From the IMG/VR virus record IMGVR_UViG_3300010401_000014, positions 1 to 50,978 of that record: a stretch of DNA of 50,978 nucleotides. One strand, written 5' to 3'. Made by a program: the position numbers and the translations under genes. Origin of the DNA: a virus (taxonomy: Duplodnaviria > Caudoviricetes). How positions within the stretch are numbered: position 1 is the first letter of the stretch; the number at the start of each line of letters is the position of its first letter. Shown in pieces: positions 7,681 through 41,977 of this stretch. Below the pieces are notes generated by a model. The model had not been told where the DNA came from. It did no database searches and saw only the letters and a program-made list of their open reading frames with translations.

Positions 7681-9156
7681 TTATGGGATCTCTAAGTTAA
7701 GAGTTATTAAAATCTTACTGGGTCCAGTGGCAGGAATATCATCTACTTCTATCTCTAATCTAGTATTTTTTTCTAAAACTCTATCAGTAGGCCATGCATC
7801 ATTAAAATGAAAATCATCTCCTTGAATTATTGGCCGCAAATTTTGATCGTCAAAGATTGTAGTAAATGCTGAACCATCAACAGACTTGTTTATATCAACT
7901 TTTGTATCACCTGCGCCAGTGCCACCAATAACGGATGAATAAATAGAAATTATATATGCTTTTCTACTTCCATTATAATGAGCGTAATCAACATCAGAAA
8001 TTGCAAGCAACGGTCCACCACTTGCATAAATATCTAATTTTTCAACCTGTACACCAATGAATCTACGTAAATCTACTATTTGAGTAATAACCCCAGCAAC
8101 CGTAAAGAAGATATATAGAGGCATTTCTTTCTCTTGATCTATTTCTCCTGTAATGTTAAGCGTGAAGTTACGATCATTTCTAAGAAATAGATAGTTAGTT
8201 TCGTTGTCAGTAAGTGCGAAATTAGTTACTTTATTATGGTATAGAAGATTATTATTTACCTGTGCTATACCATGATGAATTACGATGTTTAACCCGTTTG
8301 TAGTTACTGCAAATCTATCCAGATTCCATACATTCTCAATATCTGCATCTTGAATTAATCCAGTAGAATCTTGTTTAACCCACGCTAAGATATAAACTAG
8401 ACTTTCATCTATAACTGGTTTAACTGGTGGATTTCCGTTTAATCCTTTAACTATACCAACAGAAGATCCATCGAAAGTTAATGCTGCATAAAACTTATTA
8501 GCTCCAGCAGGAACTGCTGATGCAGAATCATCTGTCCCAATGTCAACTAAATCTTCTTTAACAGCACCAGCTAAATTATTAACCCATCCAAATACTTTTG
8601 GAACTAAAACTTGCGAATCTGCGCCACCTGGATTTTGAACTACATTGGCAAAATCAATTAAAAAATTTCTAGATGAATCACCTAATCCAGAAACAATACC
8701 ATTACCAATTCCTTCAAAGAATCCATTACCTAAAGCTATGTATGGTTTTCTTTCTACTCTAACTTTAACTTGGTAAACAGCAACTTGAGAACTTTCAAGG
8801 GAAAGAATTCTAGCCTCTATAGCAATAAAACCACCGTCTAATAAACTTGGGATAATTAAATAAGATCCCGCGCCCATTAACTGCCATGCAGAATCACCTT
8901 TAATTCTAGCTTGGAGATACTTGTTTTCTACAAATTCTTCATTCTCTGCTACAAATGGATCTTCACTAACTTTTCGACAAAGAATAGAAACTAGTAATCC
9001 TTCTTCATTCTGTCCACTGTTATTTTTAAAATGCCATTCTTGAATAGCTGTAGCTGTACCACCAATAACATCATTAAATTCAAAACCTACTCCACCCTCA
9101 CTTACAGGAGCAAGTTTAACAGTATCATCAGAATTACACCATTCAAAATCAGCCAT
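7681..9156 (-). CDS. Minor tail / fibre-attachment protein
   Basis: 491-aa acidic beta-rich ORF in the tail-tip cluster. Confidence 0.55.
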   Translation of the reverse strand: MADFEWCNSDDTVKLAPVSEGGVGFEFNDVIGGTATAIQEWHFKNNSGQNEEGLLVSILCRKVSEDPFVAENEEFVENKYLQARIKGDSAWQLMGAGSYLIIPSLLDGGFIAIEARILSLESSQVAVYQVKVRVERKPYIALGNGFFEGIGNGIVSGLGDSSRNFLIDFANVVQNPGGADSQVLVPKVFGWVNNLAGAVKEDLVDIGTDDSASAVPAGANKFYAALTFDGSSVGIVKGLNGNPPVKPVIDESLVYILAWVKQDSTGLIQDADIENVWNLDRFAVTTNGLNIVIHHGIAQVNNNLLYHNKVTNFALTDNETNYLFLRNDRNFTLNITGEIDQEKEMPLYIFFTVAGVITQIVDLRRFIGVQVEKLDIYASGGPLLAISDVDYAHYNGSRKAYIISIYSSVIGGTGAGDTKVDINKSVDGSAFTTIFDDQNLRPIIQGDDFHFNDAWPTDRVLEKNTRLEIEVDDIPATGPSKILITLNLEIP

Positions 9157-31005: not shown

Positions 31006-31195
31006 GGCGTTAGCCTCGGTTTCGGCTGAGCGGTCACAGGCGCCTCTGGACGTGTCGATCTAGGTCGGAGGTAGGGCAGCGTCCGTCGCTTCGATCCTGG
31101 GCTTAAAGAACTGGCGCCGCTTGCCTATCTAGCACTAGCAGCCGGCCGGCGAGGGACCGGACGACGGGCCGTCCGACCCTCTGCCGCCCACGTAC
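31005..31195. other. GC-rich island B with core motif at 31101-31124 (+)
   Basis: Hand count about 67% GC over 31011-31190; GCTTAAAGAACTGGCGCCGCTTGC. Confidence 0.8.
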
Positions 31196-31439
31196 AAAAA
31201 TAGTTAGAAAAAAACTCCACAACGCTACCTGTAGAGATTTACATTTTCTTTCTATGTTTGCCAATAACGAAAACGCCGCCTTATTTAAGACGGCGCTAAC
31301 GTCGCGTTTCTTGGTAAGGATGGACGCGATACCAACCAATCGGGAGATTCTAAATCTTGCAGCTATGGAGCTTATCTGCAAAGTTAGATTCCCTGTAAGC
31401 TGCTCCACTTGTTAACTATACAGAACGCATACAAGCTTG

Positions 31440-31664
31440 TCAATGGATAAATGGAATTAGTATTTCGTATTGTATCTTTCCAAATTCATCAATAACTACT
31501 AATCTACTATCAGACTTAAGGTACTTATAAATTAGTACAAATACAGCTAATGATGTTCTTAGAATAAATGATTTAGTTTGTTTATGTGTAGCTGAAATAT
31601 CATGCAATAACTTAAATTCATCTTTATTAACTTCTACGCGAATTGTCTTAGTTTGATCTACCAT
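31440..31664 (-). CDS. CopG/RHH-like regulator
   Basis: TIRVEVNKDEFKLL..TKSFILRTSL. Confidence 0.55.
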   Translation of the reverse strand: MVDQTKTIRVEVNKDEFKLLHDISATHKQTKSFILRTSLAVFVLIYKYLKSDSRLVVIDEFGKIQYEILIPFIH

Positions 31665-32755: not shown

Positions 32756-32831
32756 TGGTATGCCCGGAAAGAATTGAACTTTCTACCTTCGTCTTATAAG
32801 GACGCCGCTCTAACCGATGAGCTACGGGCAT
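32756..32831 (-). tRNA. tRNA-Ile(UAU), CCA encoded
   Basis: Cloverleaf: ATGCCCG/CGGGCAT acceptor, GCTC/GAGC D arm, loop CT-TAT-AA, GAAAG-TTCAATT-CTTTC T arm, A-CCA end. Confidence 0.9.
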
Positions 32832-36150: not shown

Positions 36151-36354
36151 TTATACTTCACATCTGATATTACTAAATTTAATAGCTCTAATTAATTTAT
36201 CCCATTCAATTTCTGTTAATCCTATGGTTGCTTGTAGCTCAAGAGAATCTCCTCGTTTTACTGCAATATATAGCCGTTCGCTAACTTGAGAATCTTTTTG
36301 TTTGGGCGCATAATCAAGTTGTATTGGACCAAGTATAATGGATTTATAAATCAT
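36151..36354 (-). CDS. Hypothetical protein
   Basis: 67-aa coupled ORF. Confidence 0.5.
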   Translation of the reverse strand: MIYKSIILGPIQLDYAPKQKDSQVSERLYIAVKRGDSLELQATIGLTEIEWDKLIRAIKFSNIRCEV

Positions 36355-36556
36355 TAATTACCTCATCATCTATTATTTTAATTTCTTTTAAGTGTAGAGT
36401 AGTTAGACCGCTTGATTCATTTTCATGTAAAAATGCACATTTCCATCCTGCGCCACAATTTCTACATCGCCATTTAAAGTTAGGTTTTTCAACTCTCTCA
36501 TCTTCTCTAACTCTCTTCCTGGCGCTACATTTTAAGCAATTAAGATATAATTCCAT
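36344..36556 (-). CDS. Zinc-ribbon protein
   Basis: CLKC...CRNC. Confidence 0.55.
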   Translation of the reverse strand: MELYLNCLKCSARKRVREDERVEKPNFKWRCRNCGAGWKCAFLHENESSGLTTLHLKEIKIIDDEVINDL

Positions 36557-36864
36557 TAATACTTGTAATTATTATTTATAATTCTTGATAGATCTGTTTT
36601 ATAATTTAATTCTACAAGATACCAAAATTCGCTTAAAACTCTTGTAGGTAACTTTAGAATTTCTCTATTCTTTTGTCTGTTAAAGTTATGTCTAGCTTGT
36701 TTTATATTCTTTTTAAGTTTTTCAATTTTATCTTTTCGTGACTTTATTTCATGTTCGCAATCCATGCAATAGCCGCGAGTGCTGATATCGTCTTTCTTTA
36801 ATCTACAAAACTTACAGTGCGTAATACGCGGAATACTAATATCTCTAAATTCAATTTCTTTCAT
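36556..36864 (-). CDS. Zinc-finger plus basic coiled-coil protein
   Basis: CKFC...CMDC; first ORF of the leftward operon. Confidence 0.55.
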   Translation of the reverse strand: MKEIEFRDISIPRITHCKFCRLKKDDISTRGYCMDCEHEIKSRKDKIEKLKKNIKQARHNFNRQKNREILKLPTRVLSEFWYLVELNYKTDLSRIINNNYKY

Positions 36865-37228
36865 TCTTGTCTCATCTTATTAAATTTATCAACTCTTGAT
36901 TTATCTAGCAAGGGTTCATACGCTTCTGCTACATAATCATCTATGAGATATTTAAGATATGCCTACATGCTATTTTTACATCAATAATAATTTATAGTCT
37001 AATCCCCTGACCTAACCTCCGGGTAGCCGGCTCGCCTGGCGTCTCTAGCCATGCCATAATAGTACCACAAATCAGACCTAAAACAGCGCCTTCAGCAAGT
37101 TGCTATAGCAGCTAAGTCACCACACGAGGTACCTCACTACAGCTAATTGCTATAGGGAGCTAGCTCGTCACGCTCGGTACCGGCCACAACCATCCCGCTA
37201 ACTGGCATCAAACTTACTTGGAGGTTAG

Positions 37229-37245
37229 CTGGCATCTCTTTTGCT
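37229..37245 (+). promoter_or_regulatory. Sigma54 -24/-12 element
   Basis: CTGGCATCTCTTTTGCT (GG-N10-GC). Confidence 0.55.
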
Positions 37246-37654
37246 TACCATCCAACCCGGCAAGTCATGCCGCATTGCGGCAAATTGACGTCTTAGCGCG
37301 GCAAGCTCTAATGCCGCATTGCGTCATACCGTGCTTTTGGCTCACTACTGGTGTAGTGCGTGCTGTACACCGGGTGGAAACGCTACCCACCGAATCCTCG
37401 AGCTGGCCCTGCTCTAGAGCTCGCTGTGCCATCCTCCGACCTCAGCACGACCACCAGCACAGCCACCAGCAACCAGGGTCACACAGGCCTCTACAGCAAG
37501 CGCCACAGGGGAACGGATCCACCATGGGGATTGGCTCACTACCGTCGATCGCTGCGCTCCTAGCTGAGCTAACACAAGCTACAGCTGTAGGTATTCCCGC
37601 TCTGTATCACCTATGCTATCACCTGTTACCAAAGTGCTCATCCTGTAACACGGC

Positions 37655-37780
37655 TGACAAAGAGTGTCAGTAGGTGACAAAAGTTGTCAGTACCCAGTGA
37701 CAAAGATTGTCAGCTTAGATCTGATCCTTAGACCTAAAACAAAGTGACAAAGTTTGTCAACTCTATGACACAAAGTGTCG
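37655..37780. repeat. Five TGACA-N5-TGTC(A/G) palindromes (enhancer/operator array)
   Basis: Copies start at 37655, 37675, 37698, 37745, 37766. Confidence 0.9.
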
Positions 37781-37786
37781 ATGGCG

Positions 37787-37811
37787 TAAGTTACTGGTAC
37801 TAAACGACTTA
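37787..37811. promoter_or_regulatory. IHF-like site
   Basis: Minus strand TACCAG-TAAC-TTA vs WATCAR-N4-TTR (one mismatch); TAAGT-N15-ACTTA symmetry. Confidence 0.5.
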
Positions 37812-37900
37812 GATATGGTTATGTTACCTATAGTAACGTTGGCACGGAAAAGAATTGTCAGTCTTAGAGTCTACATAGAGAAATCTCCCTCTAAAGATAG

Positions 37901-37917
37901 CTGGCATTTGCTTTGCT
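37901..37917 (+). promoter_or_regulatory. Sigma54 promoter
   Basis: CTGGCATTTGCTTTGCT (GG-N10-GC) 120-250 bp downstream of the palindrome array. Confidence 0.7.
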
Positions 37918-37964
37918 ATGTAGATCAGAGAGAAAGGCAAGACAAAACGGACGGCCGAAAGGTC

Positions 37965-37993
37965 TTGACAGTCTCACGGTTCTAGGCTACGAT
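37965..37993 (+). promoter_or_regulatory. Sigma70 promoter
   Basis: TTGACA-17-TACGAT. Confidence 0.75.
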
Positions 37994-38020
37994 TCGCGGA
38001 GTAGGAAACAGACGGTTTGA

Positions 38021-38033
38021 GGTTCGTTGAAAA
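38021..38033 (+). promoter_or_regulatory. boxA-like antitermination site 1
   Basis: GGTTCGTTGAAAA about 20 nt after the predicted start site. Confidence 0.55.
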
Positions 38034-38342
38034 CCTAGAATCTAGAATGATTCGCACTAGTTTAGTTTATGTTGAACCAGTGTGACAAACTAGGAACAAA
38101 TCACATGCTCATTTATGCGTTTCCTAGAACGAAAAATGAGAAAGCGATAACGCAGTTACCGCCTAGCGCGAATCATCTTAGACTTTAGGTTTAGCAGGAA
38201 AAACAGGAGAAGAAAGCAAGCCTGAAAAGAACGATTGCGAAATCAGCGAAACGGCTAGACAGGATCTGTAAAGGTCCACGGAGCATGGAGTAGCTGTCAA
38301 AGTAGCGAAAGATCCTAGTAAGGCTTGACTTTCTCCTGTTTC

Positions 38343-38355
38343 GGTTCTTTGAAAA
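38343..38355 (+). promoter_or_regulatory. boxA-like antitermination site 2
   Basis: GGTTCTTTGAAAA in the linker between cassettes 2 and 3. Confidence 0.65.
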
Positions 38356-38672
38356 TCAGCTCAGTATCGCGATAGGGATAACCCCGTCGCTTCACCTAAA
38401 ACTAGGTGGTGAAAAGGCGATACTGAAAAAAACAGTGTGTGGAAACTCATGCGCTAATGTTTGAAAGAAAGCATGATAATCTAAGCCAAATCATGCGCCT
38501 GTACTTAGCGGGAAAGTGTCAGTAATCGAATTAAAATCTGTTTCACGAATGCGTTGTGGACCTCGGAAAGCAACGTGCTAGTGAATGCTGGCGCCGCGTT
38601 AGCGCAGTAGCTTCCACATACTGAAAACTCTGGGGCTTCTTCCTGCCGTCAAGTAATGCAAGGAATGAAAGA

Positions 38673-38771
38673 ATGAATTACATCGTCGTAATTGGTAAAG
38701 ACGTTTACAAATTCAAAATGCGCTTCACTGCCGAGCTTTTTGCAAAGCATTTCGGTGCGAAGGTTTTTTAG
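38673..38771 (+). CDS. 32-aa mini-protein inside RNA cassette 5
   Basis: AAGGA RBS; MNYIVVIGKDVYKFKMRFTAELFAKHFGAKVF*. Confidence 0.55.
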   Translation: MNYIVVIGKDVYKFKMRFTAELFAKHFGAKVF

Positions 38772-38774
38772 TTT

Positions 38775-38945
38775 ATGAAAGAGTACACGAAGCATATGAA
38801 ACCTATCTGTACATGCGGTGAATACTGGCCGTGTAGCGACAGTGAAAGGAAAGATATTTCTGGTATTTTGCGCGCCAGTCATCATCTTGCATCATTTTGC
38901 AGAAAAGAAATACGAGTAACTACGATAGAAAGAAAGATTAAGTAA
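38775..38945 (+). CDS. 56-aa Cys-containing mini-protein inside RNA cassette 5
   Basis: MKEYTKHMKPICTCGEYWPC...ERKIK*; starts 3 nt after the previous stop and ends 7 nt before the closing strand. Confidence 0.5.
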   Translation: MKEYTKHMKPICTCGEYWPCSDSERKDISGILRASHHLASFCRKEIRVTTIERKIK

Positions 38946-39182
38946 GCAAACAGACGGCAGAAAAAAGTCTCAGAGAAAGAATCCATCTAGCAGGGAATCC
39001 GTAAACATATCCGGAATCCTGCAAGAAACCGCAAAAGCCGCTAAACAGAAAGACGTGCAAATGAAAAATACCGCACAATTTTCTCAGCGGATTCCTTGCT
39101 ATATGGATTCTAGAGTTTCAGCGGCCGAAAGCTAGCTGGAAAAATCCCGTCGAATAAACGTCGGGAAGCGAAAGGATGTATT

Positions 39183-39497
39183 ATGGCCCGTCCAAAGGCG
39201 CAAGTAGAGAATGACGATTTCGATGCAGACCCGGATGCCGCTGCCGATGCAGCCGAGGAAACGTCAGATGACAAGCGTTCGCCAGAAGAGAAGTTTACGG
39301 CTGCCGCAAATCGACGTTTCAAGGTTTGGGTAGTTCGCACTCGCGCCATTGCAAAGCTTCACAGTAAGACTTACGGTTATTCGACGGATCAGGCGGAAAA
39401 GCTACTTACTGCGATGCAATCAGAATTCGATAACATGGCGACTCTTCTCCGCACTCGACCTGAGCGAGACGACGCCGCAACGCCAGACCTGTTCTAA
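39183..39497 (+). CDS. Early hypothetical protein with GC-richer codon usage
   Basis: AAAGGA RBS; acidic N-terminus; flanked by hairpins. Confidence 0.75.
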   Translation: MARPKAQVENDDFDADPDAAADAAEETSDDKRSPEEKFTAAANRRFKVWVVRTRAIAKLHSKTYGYSTDQAEKLLTAMQSEFDNMATLLRTRPERDDAATPDLF

Positions 39498-39500
39498 AAA

Positions 39501-39563
39501 CAGCATGTAGATTTGGCACTCCGGTAGTCAAAGGATTATCGGAGTGTCGCTGTGTACATACTG
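39501..39563 (+). other. Long hairpin after the first early gene (processing/stability element)
   Basis: GGCACTCCGGTAGTC-AAAG-GATTATCGGAGTGTC; no U-tract. Confidence 0.6.
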
Positions 39564-39818
39564 GAAGGAATGCTAGAATGGAAATTCTAACTAGGCTAAT
39601 TAGAGGAGTTTTTTACAAAGTAGGAGTAGGATCAATCTGTTTATAGACTTTCAAGAGACGCACCTAATGCAAAATGATGAAAATATTTAAGACTATTTTT
39701 AATGCAATAGATTATTGCAGGTTATTTTTAATGTGGTTAATTCCTGGAAATTACCACGAAGATGCAGTATACTATTTATCTAGAAAATCGAATGAAAAAC
39801 TTAGAATGAGATGAATGA

Positions 39819-40073
39819 ATGAAATTTTTAATCGCTACAAAAGGCACAATAGAAGATTTACGTAAAGAGCTTCTAGAAAAAGATATTCAATTTAGCTTAG
39901 TAACTATACATAAGTCAGAAGATAACATTCTTTATTCTAACGTTGAATTTCATGATTCTAATATATTTAATATTTGGATGAATGAAACAACCGAAAATGA
40001 TATAATTCCTGAATATGGATATCCTAATGGTTCTCTAATTTGGTGGAGTACAATAAATGAAACAAAAGACTGA
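39819..40073 (+). CDS. Hypothetical early protein
   Basis: 84-aa ORF. Confidence 0.6.
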   Translation: MKFLIATKGTIEDLRKELLEKDIQFSLVTIHKSEDNILYSNVEFHDSNIFNIWMNETTENDIIPEYGYPNGSLIWWSTINETKD

Positions 40074-40176
40074 AAAAATTCCTGTTATATGTAATGAATG
40101 TAATAATAAATTCAAAACATCTAAACTAATTCCAGAATGTCCTAAATGCGGTGGAGTAGATATAGAACCGAGGTAG
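40057..40176 (+). CDS. 39-aa zinc-ribbon protein not in the ORF track
   Basis: MKQKTEKIPVICNEC...ECPKCGGVDIEPR*; GGAG upstream. Confidence 0.6.
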   Translation: MKQKTEKIPVICNECNNKFKTSKLIPECPKCGGVDIEPR

Positions 40177-40335
40177 AATTATGAAAAAAGACATTACTGA
40201 AAGAAATAGAAAGCTCATGAATGACCTGAAGGATCTTTTCGTAAAGCATGGACTAAATATTCTAGAAATAAAGTATGAATTCTTAGATGGTACAGAGCAT
40301 TTTAAGTCTTATAAAATATCAAGAGATTAAAACCA

Positions 40336-40772: not shown

Positions 40773-41012
40773 ATGGCAATACTTAAAAAGCGTAAATATA
40801 ATCCATCTAGGATTACAAATAAGATTTTAGCGGAATCAGACTTAATATTTACGCCAGTTAAACGTGGTGAAAATGAAATTATTGAAATACGTATTGTATC
40901 AAAAAGCTTAGATAAATTAACGCTAGATTATGATACTATATATATATTAGAAATTAATAGATCGGATATTGCTGATTTACTAATTTGTGAAAAAAGATTA
41001 GATACACTTTAA
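40773..41012 (+). CDS. Hypothetical early protein
   Basis: 79-aa ORF, stop overlaps a convergent gene. Confidence 0.55.
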   Translation: MAILKKRKYNPSRITNKILAESDLIFTPVKRGENEIIEIRIVSKSLDKLTLDYDTIYILEINRSDIADLLICEKRLDTL

Positions 41013-41977
41013 TCTAAGCAAAACATATAACTTGGCGTTGTTGCAAGTGGTGAATTATCTATATTCAACCAAACCGGAGGAACATCCGAATTAAGTAGAA
41101 TATGTGATAATTTATCAGTTTCAATAATTAATGCAGTTTCTCCATCACTAGATGGATCGCACGATTTTGCATATACCCCACTTGTATCTAAACTTGCATT
41201 ACCAATGATTTGCGTATAAACAGCATCTTGAGATAATTTTCCAATTTCTCTAGTTGCATTTGTTGAATTTGTATTTACGATTAATGAATCTGTAGATCCT
41301 GGAATAGTACTTCCTTGAATGTAATTCAACCATGAACCATCAGATGGATCGTTTGGTAAAAAATCATTACTAGGAACGAATTCAGATTGAAATGCTCCAA
41401 CCTTAATATATCCAGATTCTCCAGGATCTCCATAAACAGGGATGATTCCAATATCTCCACAAGATAAAACAGAACCACTTGAAGATCCTAATAATGGACT
41501 ACTAAGGTTTTCTAATGCAGCAGGAGATATCTCTTCTGGACCTATAGACGTTAATTGGTATAAAGCATAATAATCTTCTGAACGCTTATAAGCAGTAAAA
41601 TAACATTTCCCGTTCTTACCGTCACTATTCATTAATCTAGTAAAAGCTCCATTTGTAACAGCATCGAATGCTCCATATAATATGTCATTATCAAAATCAT
41701 AAACTACTGTTTTTCCATTGCTTCTATTGAATCCTATTACAAGTGGCGAAAGCGATAATACTTGACATGAAACAATTGTACCAGTTAATATACCCGAATA
41801 ATCTTTTGATCCTATAAAAGAATCATAAGTACCACCTATATATTTGTGTAGGTAAATAATGTTAGTATCAAATGTAACTCCTAAATATGGTCTATTGACT
41901 ATGCTAGGAGTATCGTCACCTTTTGTAACTTCCAACACTTGTGAAATAACTTTTGCTTTTCCAATTCCTAATGCCAT
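41009..41977 (-). CDS. Beta-rich (propeller-like) protein, inverted relative to its neighbours
   Basis: 322 aa, GGAG RBS, Ser/Gly/Asp-rich. Confidence 0.7.
   Translation of the reverse strand: MALGIGKAKVISQVLEVTKGDDTPSIVNRPYLGVTFDTNIIYLHKYIGGTYDSFIGSKDYSGILTGTIVSCQVLSLSPLVIGFNRSNGKTVVYDFDNDILYGAFDAVTNGAFTRLMNSDGKNGKCYFTAYKRSEDYYALYQLTSIGPEEISPAALENLSSPLLGSSSGSVLSCGDIGIIPVYGDPGESGYIKVGAFQSEFVPSNDFLPNDPSDGSWLNYIQGSTIPGSTDSLIVNTNSTNATREIGKLSQDAVYTQIIGNASLDTSGVYAKSCDPSSDGETALIIETDKLSHILLNSDVPPVWLNIDNSPLATTPSYMFCLD

Follow-up and report, generated by a model that had tools for sequence, protein, structure and literature searches.

A GC-rich array of six stem-closed cassettes at the gene-orientation switch of an AT-rich phage, a possible structured early leader transcript

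The stretch of DNA analysed here (the window) is the whole 50,978-bp virus record IMGVR_UViG_3300010401_000014 (Duplodnaviria; Caudoviricetes), which is complete, with terminal repeats present, and has an overall guanine-plus-cytosine (GC) content of 35%. The leftward structural and other genes of this phage end at 36864, and its rightward genes begin at 39183. An island of 2.5 kb (~36990-39500) with 38-55% GC, nearly devoid of open frames, sits between the two blocks. Its right part carries a tandem array of six stem-closed units on the plus strand, referred to here as cassettes 1 to 6.

A preliminary description of the locus had reported six adjacent stem-closed units, and all six were present between 38031 and 39111 (Table 1). 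The repeat search unaided recovered four of the six closing repeats, those of cassettes 1, 4 (38433-57/38599-623; 25 nt, 84%), 5, and 6, and the closing repeats of cassettes 2 and 3 were seen in the minimum-free-energy (MFE) fold, in which 8 of the 10 bp of cassette 3 were stacked as one. A recount of stem 1 gave the same 2 G-U and 3 A-C pairs as reported before. The linkers between the cassettes are AGCAGGAA (8 nt), a 19-nt stretch, AAAAAA, AAAA, and AA, three of the five being pure A, and the arms of different cassettes are mutually unrelated and single-copy in the genome. Two short outer helices (38014-18/39129-33, 5 bp; 38025-30/39118-23, 6 bp) were predicted with a pair probability of 0.94, and an inverted repeat at 38025-42/39106-23 offers a possible competing pairing for the outer helix. 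On paper, the array would form one closed six-armed structure of ~1.1 kb.

Table 1. Features of the island and of the array that it carries, in order of position
Feature	Position	Strand	Description
Left part of the island	36990-37650		660 bp, 54.5% GC, C-rich on the plus strand, without a supported gene
Palindromes TGACAAAnnnTGTCA	37655-37759 (four copies); 37847-37862 (fifth, partial)		100-300 bp upstream of the promoter; operator-like cluster
Sigma70-like promoter	37965-37993	+	TTGACA-17-TACGAT; consensus match 10/12; implied start near 38000
Outer helices, 5' halves	38014-38030	+	predicted to pair with 39118-39133 and enclose the whole array (MFE fold, partition function)
Cassette 1	38031-38192	+	162 nt; 30-nt repeat 38031-60/38163-92 (83%): 25 Watson-Crick, 2 G-U, 3 A-C
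Cassette 2	38196-38349	+	helices of 5 + 12 + 7 bp with a bulge; arms of the preliminary description 38201-23/38321-41
Cassette 3	38361-38426	+	66 nt; three-way junction; 10-bp perfect closing repeat (10/10 Watson-Crick)
Cassette 4	38433-38623	+	191 nt; helices of 12 + 11 bp; 28-nt arms: 22 Watson-Crick, 3 G-U, 1 A-C, 2 other
Cassette 5	38628-38975	+	348 nt; 23-nt repeat 38628-50/38953-75 (83%): 19 Watson-Crick, 2 G-U, 2 A-C; brackets a small gene
Small protein gene	38673-38945	+	32 codons, TAG (38769-71), TTT, then ATG + 55 codons, all in one frame
Cassette 6	38978-39111	+	134 nt; 24-nt repeat 38978-39001/39088-111 (92%): 22 Watson-Crick, 1 G-U, 1 other
Outer helices, 3' halves	39118-39133	+	partners of 38014-38030
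First full-length gene after the array	39183-39497	+	104 amino acids, 53% GC, AAGGA before ATG; function unknown

The fold of each cassette was compared with those of 200 dinucleotide shuffles. The plus-strand z-scores of cassettes 1 to 6 were -6.4, -4.3 (computed on 38201-38341), -5.1, -5.4, -2.5, and -8.6, respectively. The native fold was matched by none of the 200 shuffles for five cassettes and by 1 of 200 for cassette 5, whose signal is the weakest, as expected if its interior is coding. Mean pair probabilities of the closing helices, taken from the partition function of 37990-39182, were 0.84-0.99 with the exception of a 5-bp extension of stem 2 (0.48); the values were 0.89-0.99 for cassette 1, 0.48, 0.84, and 0.99 for the three helices of cassette 2, 0.98 for cassette 3, 0.99 for both cassettes 4 and 5, and 0.98-0.99 for cassette 6. 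A genome-wide scan (at least 17 of 20 positions Watson-Crick, spacer of at least 20, span of at most 450) detected six long-range inverted repeats in 50,978 bp, three of which lie in the array, against 1, 2, and 0 in three block-shuffled genomes. The anatomy of the array is as first described and is far from chance.

In the five cassettes other than cassette 5, no plus-strand frame exceeds 39 amino acids (aa); the largest plus-strand open reading frame (ORF) of cassette 1 encodes 39 aa without a ribosome-binding site, and cassette 2 contains no plus-strand ORF of 25 aa or more. The word GAAAG occurs 17 times in 1,181 nt, whereas dinucleotide composition predicts 4.2 occurrences (Poisson p ~2e-6, uncorrected for 1,024 words), and its A residues are predicted to be unpaired (P of at least 0.69) in 12 of the 17 copies. 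GAAAG may be a binding word, or it may be a mere consequence of the A-rich junctions.

The gene in cassette 5 has AAGGA 7 nt ahead of its first ATG and is interrupted by an in-frame TAG at codon 33. TAG terminates 18 of the 60 long ORFs in the window, which indicates an ordinary stop in this phage; thus, either the gene is interrupted or only its 56-aa tail is made. Recoding (TAG as Q or TGA as W) was considered and discarded, as it yielded no convincing long frame in 36900-39300, the best one in the array being 131 aa and requiring four TAGs. The gene product contains the motif CxCGEYWPCSDSERKDISG..RA.HH. An exhaustive phmmer search of 1.84 billion representatives with the 90-aa read-through product returned nine proteins (E-values of 3e-6 to 5e-4), all of which share the C-terminal motif CxxCG-E-x-WPC-SDS-x-R-x-DISG-x-x-RA-x-HH. 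Across seven aligned sequences, 13 columns are invariant, including C46, C48, G49, W52, P53, C54, R59, D61, I62, R67, A68, and H70. The proteins of this family are 79-222 aa long, the window copy belongs to it by its motif, and the N-terminal part of the cassette 5 product resembles some members by eye, a likeness without statistics. No model for the CxxCG-WPC family was found in Pfam, PHROG, or NCBIfam, and tblastn of the cassette 5 product and of protein P0128 against isolated phages gave no match. Three near-identical IMG/VR contigs of a phage with 66% GC carry a homologue of the cassette 5 gene just after their own divergent switch; no notable stem brackets it, and these contigs have nothing else in common with the island.

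The closing stem of cassette 5 runs from 22 nt before the start codon to 8 nt after the stop codon and leaves the AAGGA free. These limits argue that the stem brackets a cistron rather than an RNA gene, and a bracketed gene with a free AAGGA fits a role at the level of messenger RNA (mRNA). The earlier view of the locus as an array of RNA cassettes needs correction: five modules look non-coding, cassette 5 is a stem-bracketed, interrupted gene of a conserved motif family, and all six lie inside the outer closure.

The setting of the array agrees with the earlier account, in which a sigma70 promoter opens the array and the array opens the early region. The TTGACA-17-TACGAT consensus match on the plus strand lies 30-60 nt upstream of the array, is the best of eight promoter-like sites in 36500-40000, and is one of 23 such sites with at most two mismatches in the genome. 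The array leads into the ORF at 39183-39497, followed by small ORFs of unknown function, a helicase (phrog_16, E-value of 4e-89), and an exonuclease, and "early/replication region" is a fair label for this rightward block on its position. No plus-strand terminator-like site was detected after the array, both terminator-like sites in 36500-40000 being on the minus strand. The plus strand of the array is purine-rich (A 0.34, G 0.24, C 0.19), like the downstream genes, and A accounts for 53% of the unpaired bases in the fold.

RNase III cuts imperfect duplexes of about two helical turns (~20 bp or more). With mismatches allowed, five of the six closing stems are of this kind (19-30 positions, 83-92% complementarity), and that of cassette 3 is only 10 bp long.

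Our favoured reading, put forward tentatively and with somewhat less than even confidence, is that the array is a structured early leader transcript that is probably processed by RNase III. We infer that the host RNA polymerase would start near 38000, meet no terminator, and transcribe ~1.15 kb before reaching the gene at 39183. As it is transcribed, the RNA would fold into six domains, each closed on its own and linked to the next by a short A-rich stretch, and the two short outer helices would join the 5' and 3' ends of the array. The closing duplexes of 19-30 bp are of the size recognised by the host RNase III, and the likeliest consequence would be processing and/or stabilisation of the early RNA, with cleavage within or beside the stems and RNA ends that, kept in duplex, would be shielded from exonucleases. 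The untranslated stretch is compact and C-poor and would therefore be a poor substrate for Rho.

Two known systems come close to this arrangement. The early RNA of phages T7 and T3 is made from an early promoter for the host polymerase as a long polycistronic RNA with imperfect duplexes of ~20 bp or more between units and with small first products, and the present locus would be alike in these respects. The T7 sites are local hairpins between genes, however, whereas the duplexes here are long-range and surround inserts of 46-302 nt, five of which are gene-free. In ribosomal RNA (rRNA) operons, as proposed here, long-range pairing around an insert makes the RNase III substrate and several units stand in tandem; unlike them, the array has inserts of only 46-302 nt that match no model of rRNA, transfer RNA (tRNA), or any other Rfam family, and one insert is an mRNA. 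To our knowledge, a tandem stem-bracketed design has not been described for phage leaders. A full-text literature search turned up no description of such an array in the portions of the articles available.

The Rfam search suggested in the preliminary description, which recognised no known RNA family, gave no match in the array. Rfam 15 at gathering thresholds returned only tRNA in the whole window, and at E-values up to 10 on both strands of 36700-39700 it returned only D12-methyl at 37592-37650, outside the array (E-value of 0.23; 23.5 bits compared with a gathering threshold of 57). There was thus no match to GOLLD, ROOL, HEARO, OLE, ToxI, retron msr, self-cleaving ribozymes, group I or II introns, Y RNA, or CRISPR repeats. 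The complete genome contains no reverse transcriptase (RVT_1) and no Resolvase or Phage_integrase match, and control genomes were matched in these searches. The phage has no transposase-like or recombinase match either, except for one weak zinc-ribbon match. A retron-like element is excluded by the lack of a reverse transcriptase and of an Rfam retron match, and an inverton, shufflon, or integron by the lack of a serine or tyrosine recombinase and by repeat pairs without a common core. Miniature inverted-repeat transposable elements were rejected because the arms are unrelated and single-copy and the flanks show no duplications beyond A-runs. A group II intron resembles the array in its six stem-closed domains, a junction closed by 5'-3' pairing, and an ORF in one domain; it was rejected on the lack of an Intron_gpII or group-II-D1D4 match and of a 34-nt domain V, and on an ORF that is not a reverse transcriptase.

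Several results weigh against a processed RNA leader. Over the arms of the preliminary description, the closing stems total 109 Watson-Crick, 10 G-U, 9 A-C, and 8 other pairs, five of the 8 arising from an ungapped reading of cassette 2. An A-C pair on the plus strand is a G-U pair on the minus strand, so that 10 versus 9 gives no strand signal; selection for plus-strand RNA helices should yield far more G-U than A-C, and strand-symmetric mismatches would be expected from DNA-level repeats or from neutral decay. By folding energy, cassettes 1 and 6 are more stable on the minus strand and the other four on the plus strand, and the z-scores do not separate the strands (plus/minus: -6.4/-8.0 for cassette 1, -4.3/-3.75 for cassette 2, -5.4/-3.5 for cassette 4, and -8.6/-5.5 for cassette 6). 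In energy, cassette 4 reaches -71.5 kcal/mol on the plus strand versus -55.0 kcal/mol on the minus strand, and the overall fold, which speaks for RNA, is 32 kcal/mol better on the plus strand (-382.3 versus -349.8). The promoter is a consensus match only, and the number of promoter-like sites is not above that in shuffles (8 versus 6.7 +/- 2.3). A search of the genome found no RNase III encoded by the phage, so any RNase III would be that of the host. On the side of RNA, the available portions of two reports treat long GC-rich intergenic regions in AT-rich genomes as an established pointer to structured RNAs (PMC6429828, PMC8723152). The raised GC here also covers two protein genes (38% and 53% GC) and a 660-bp block without a fold signal; since it extends beyond the folded part, high GC is not specific to structure and may reflect a foreign origin. 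The design is unusual, rests on a single sequence, and has a mismatch pattern that does not favour RNA, and the interpretation first given for it is partly supported.

The even split of transition-type mismatches is what neutral decay predicts, and the island could be a relic: a module from a GC-richer phage whose small genes have decayed, with repeats that are neutral leftovers of mobile mini-cassettes or of template-switch mutations. A stop interrupts the one gene that can be recognised in the array, the members of its family that could be located lie in contigs of a phage with 66% GC, the 15 helicase relatives listed have 47-69% GC, and a 21-nt inverted repeat (86%) flanks the whole island. 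Yet six side-by-side repeats that are 83-100% complementary would be hard to retain by drift, the arms of different cassettes are too unrelated to be copies of one element, and neither the cassettes nor the island have target-site duplications. Apart from the weak zinc-ribbon match, the phage has no transposase-like protein and no serine or tyrosine recombinase, and the divergence of the 104-aa gene at 39183 from its homologue (58% identity by BLASTP, 63% in alignment), set against 70% for the helicase, suggests that the island is old yet still GC-rich. Correia and ERIC elements, which are transcribed and whose imperfect terminal repeats form targets of RNase III or RNase E, are similar in unit size (66-348 bp here), in repeats of ~10-30 bp, and in leader position, but they are multi-copy with shared ends, whereas the six arm pairs here are unrelated, single-copy, and without target duplications. 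A relic is unlikely in our estimate, although it ranks first among the alternatives. Ranked below it, and improbable, is an element whose repeats act in DNA, as origin hairpins or cruciforms, single-strand priming sites, or protein-binding sites at the divergent switch. The strand-symmetric mismatches (10 G-U versus 9 A-C) and the similar folding of both strands by z-score speak for such an element, as do the position of the island at the minimum of the cumulative GC skew and at the gene-orientation switch and the adjoining AT-rich stretch (36865-36989, 29% GC) and palindrome cluster. The skew minimum, however, falls where leftward genes give way to rightward ones and is therefore not independent evidence. 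It is rare for known origins to hold six unrelated long-range repeats, one of the repeats neatly brackets a gene with its ribosome site, and no initiator gene was recognised nearby. The origin transcript of phage c2 and ColE1 RNA II would share with the array an early promoter and an untranslated folded RNA between divergent gene blocks, but these RNAs are 0.3-0.6 kb long and lack a tandem stem-closed design.

Other explanations keep the function in RNA and change what the RNA would do. One large multi-domain RNA of ~1.1 kb could act whole, with arms radiating from an A-rich junction on the scale of GOLLD, ROOL, and OLE, instead of being a precursor for cutting. The predicted outer helices (0.94), the linkers of 2-8 nt (besides that of 19 nt), which would make a compact junction, and the excess of mostly unpaired GAAAG (17 versus 4.2; 12 of 17) are consistent with it; however, the outer helices measure just 5 and 6 bp, a protein gene occupies one arm, and no large-RNA family of Rfam matched at E-values up to 10. 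As far as the available text on GOLLD, ROOL, OLE, and HEARO goes, these RNAs are likewise long, intergenic, GC-richer than an AT-rich genome, multi-domain, phage-borne, and strongly folded, but the array matches none of their models and has a coding arm. We consider a single large RNA still less probable than a DNA-level element. A bolder version of the processed leader, speculative and lower again in rank, would have a ~1.1-kb six-armed RNA made at the start of infection, from which the host RNase III or RNase E frees five duplex-capped stable RNAs; their unpaired GAAAG and A-rich words would titrate a host RNA-binding protein, such as a chaperone, a global regulator, or a defence sensor, and the locus would be an RNA-only takeover module with a smaller second case at 31006-31405. 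Least probable of all, and doubtful, is the original proposal that excised, end-protected RNAs serve as decoys or sponges for host RNA-binding defence or regulatory proteins. Its strengths are immediate-early expression as judged by position, five distinct non-coding folds, and the repeated, mostly unpaired GAAAG that could be a protein-binding word; against it, the array does not resemble ToxI, retron msr-msd, CRISPR repeats, or other Rfam families, the phage has no reverse transcriptase, and the data indicate no particular target.

If the stems work in RNA, as in the processed leader that we favour, this phage would have an early transcript built on the principle of rRNA operons, with tandem inserts each held in a long-range processing duplex. 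The locus would also supply five candidate phage non-coding RNAs without a known family and would add to the cases in which an AT-rich virus keeps structured RNA rich in GC. Should the repeats instead act in DNA, or be a relic, it would be a clean case of strong single-sequence fold statistics being misleading, as the balance of G-U and A-C gives no RNA-strand signal. The relatives needed to choose between these readings are already in public assemblies.

The first full-length gene downstream of the array is that at 39183-39497. Its 104-aa product is modelled with low confidence (predicted local distance difference test, pLDDT, 63.8) as an acidic disordered N-terminus and a helical hairpin; it belongs to no Pfam, PHROG, or NCBIfam family, and only unnamed clusters with scores of at most 0.86 were found in the Atlas. 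Its one homologue, P0002, lies on a 52,436-bp contig (P0002/P0005) that also encodes a helicase 70% identical to that of the window. The 104-aa gene and the helicase have diverged to a similar extent, and the island, or this gene at any rate, appears to be old in the lineage. Two more contigs encode related proteins, one of 27,394 bp with P0006 and one of 49,806 bp with P0007. A 15-nt pair (39147-39161/39373-39387, 93% complementary) joins a site in the 5' untranslated region of the 104-aa gene to a site in its coding region, 211 nt away.

No homologous island was found in eight viral and two metagenome scans. IMG/VR scans with single proteins (the 104-aa protein, the product of the ORF at 41009-41977, ThyX, and P0007) returned nothing, an alignment of the 104-aa protein gave no match in IMG/VR or in the JGI metagenomes, and P0007 matched only two unrelated metagenome loci at 23-25% identity. 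The helicase alignment recovered 80 IMG/VR loci, the best at 37% identity, none of which matched the island by blastn. The 15 relatives listed, which shared more than the helicase or ranked highest, have 47-69% GC compared with 35% in this phage. Among the window and these 80 loci, a chain of three adjacent stem-closed units (16 of 20) occurred only in the window and in locus L116. The units of L116, a distantly related phage contig with 68% GC, overlap ORFs and have no similarity to the window. A near-perfect hairpin of ~128 nt (8369-8497) has a further stem-closed unit on either side, and the group lies 1.3-1.9 kb upstream of the L116 helicase.

The island was not matched by blastn in isolated phages, and the large terminase had 271 matching records, all below 60% identity, placing the phage far from any isolate. 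A 50,860-bp Logan contig of X1, a DNA run labelled soil metagenome and the only run listed for the phage, spans 36300-40300 with 0 differences. The island is therefore no product of a single assembler's error, but since X1 probably comes from the source sample, the contig represents a second assembler rather than independent data. The left part of the island gave no fold signal at 36990-37650 (z of -0.66 on the minus strand and -0.57 on the plus strand), and the 151-aa ORF at 37218-37673 has no homologue and no Pfam match. The palindrome ATGCCGCATTGCGGCA occurs twice inside 36990-37650, with 44 nt between the copies. A 21-nt inverted repeat (36963-36983/39490-39510, 86% complementary) falls exactly at both borders of the island, without a target duplication, and may be fortuitous or mark the limits of an old insertion. 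A Shine-Dalgarno-like word precedes only 20 of the 60 long ORFs in the window, and both genes of the island have AAGGA.

Upstream of the array promoter, the cluster of palindromes TGACAAAnnnTGTCA has counterparts elsewhere, a tandem pair being present in at least 81 IMG/VR contigs with 28-64% GC. At 81 such loci, the palindromes were all that matched the island, none of the phage's proteins was matched, and no common neighbouring gene family was found, the largest groups comprising 7 of the 81. The inverted-repeat scan at 17 of 20 (spacer of at least 20, span of at most 450) found two or more inverted repeats at 17 of these loci, and no array like the present one was seen beside the palindromes there when the coordinates were read, no chain test having been run. 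This distribution suggests that TGACAAAnnnTGTCA is a widespread binding site for an unknown protein.

A second, near-consensus promoter-like site, TTGACA-17-TATAGT, lies on the minus strand at 31443. Directly after it comes a non-coding stretch of 400 nt (31006-31405) with 53.5% GC that is closed by a long-range stem. This stretch folds well only on the transcribed strand, with a z-score of -3.5 (0 of 100 shuffles) versus -1.5 (5 of 100) on the other, and the 31006-31443 stretch gave no Rfam match (best E-value of 1). A promoter followed by a GC-rich structured leader thus appears to be a repeated design in this phage, which speaks for the leader reading of the array. Near 31265-31295, the region 31006-31443 also has a hairpin that resembles a terminator and carries a U-run, and an ATG follows at 31006. 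The sole tRNA gene of the phage, a tRNA-Ile with anticodon TAT, is located at 32756-32831 on the minus strand.

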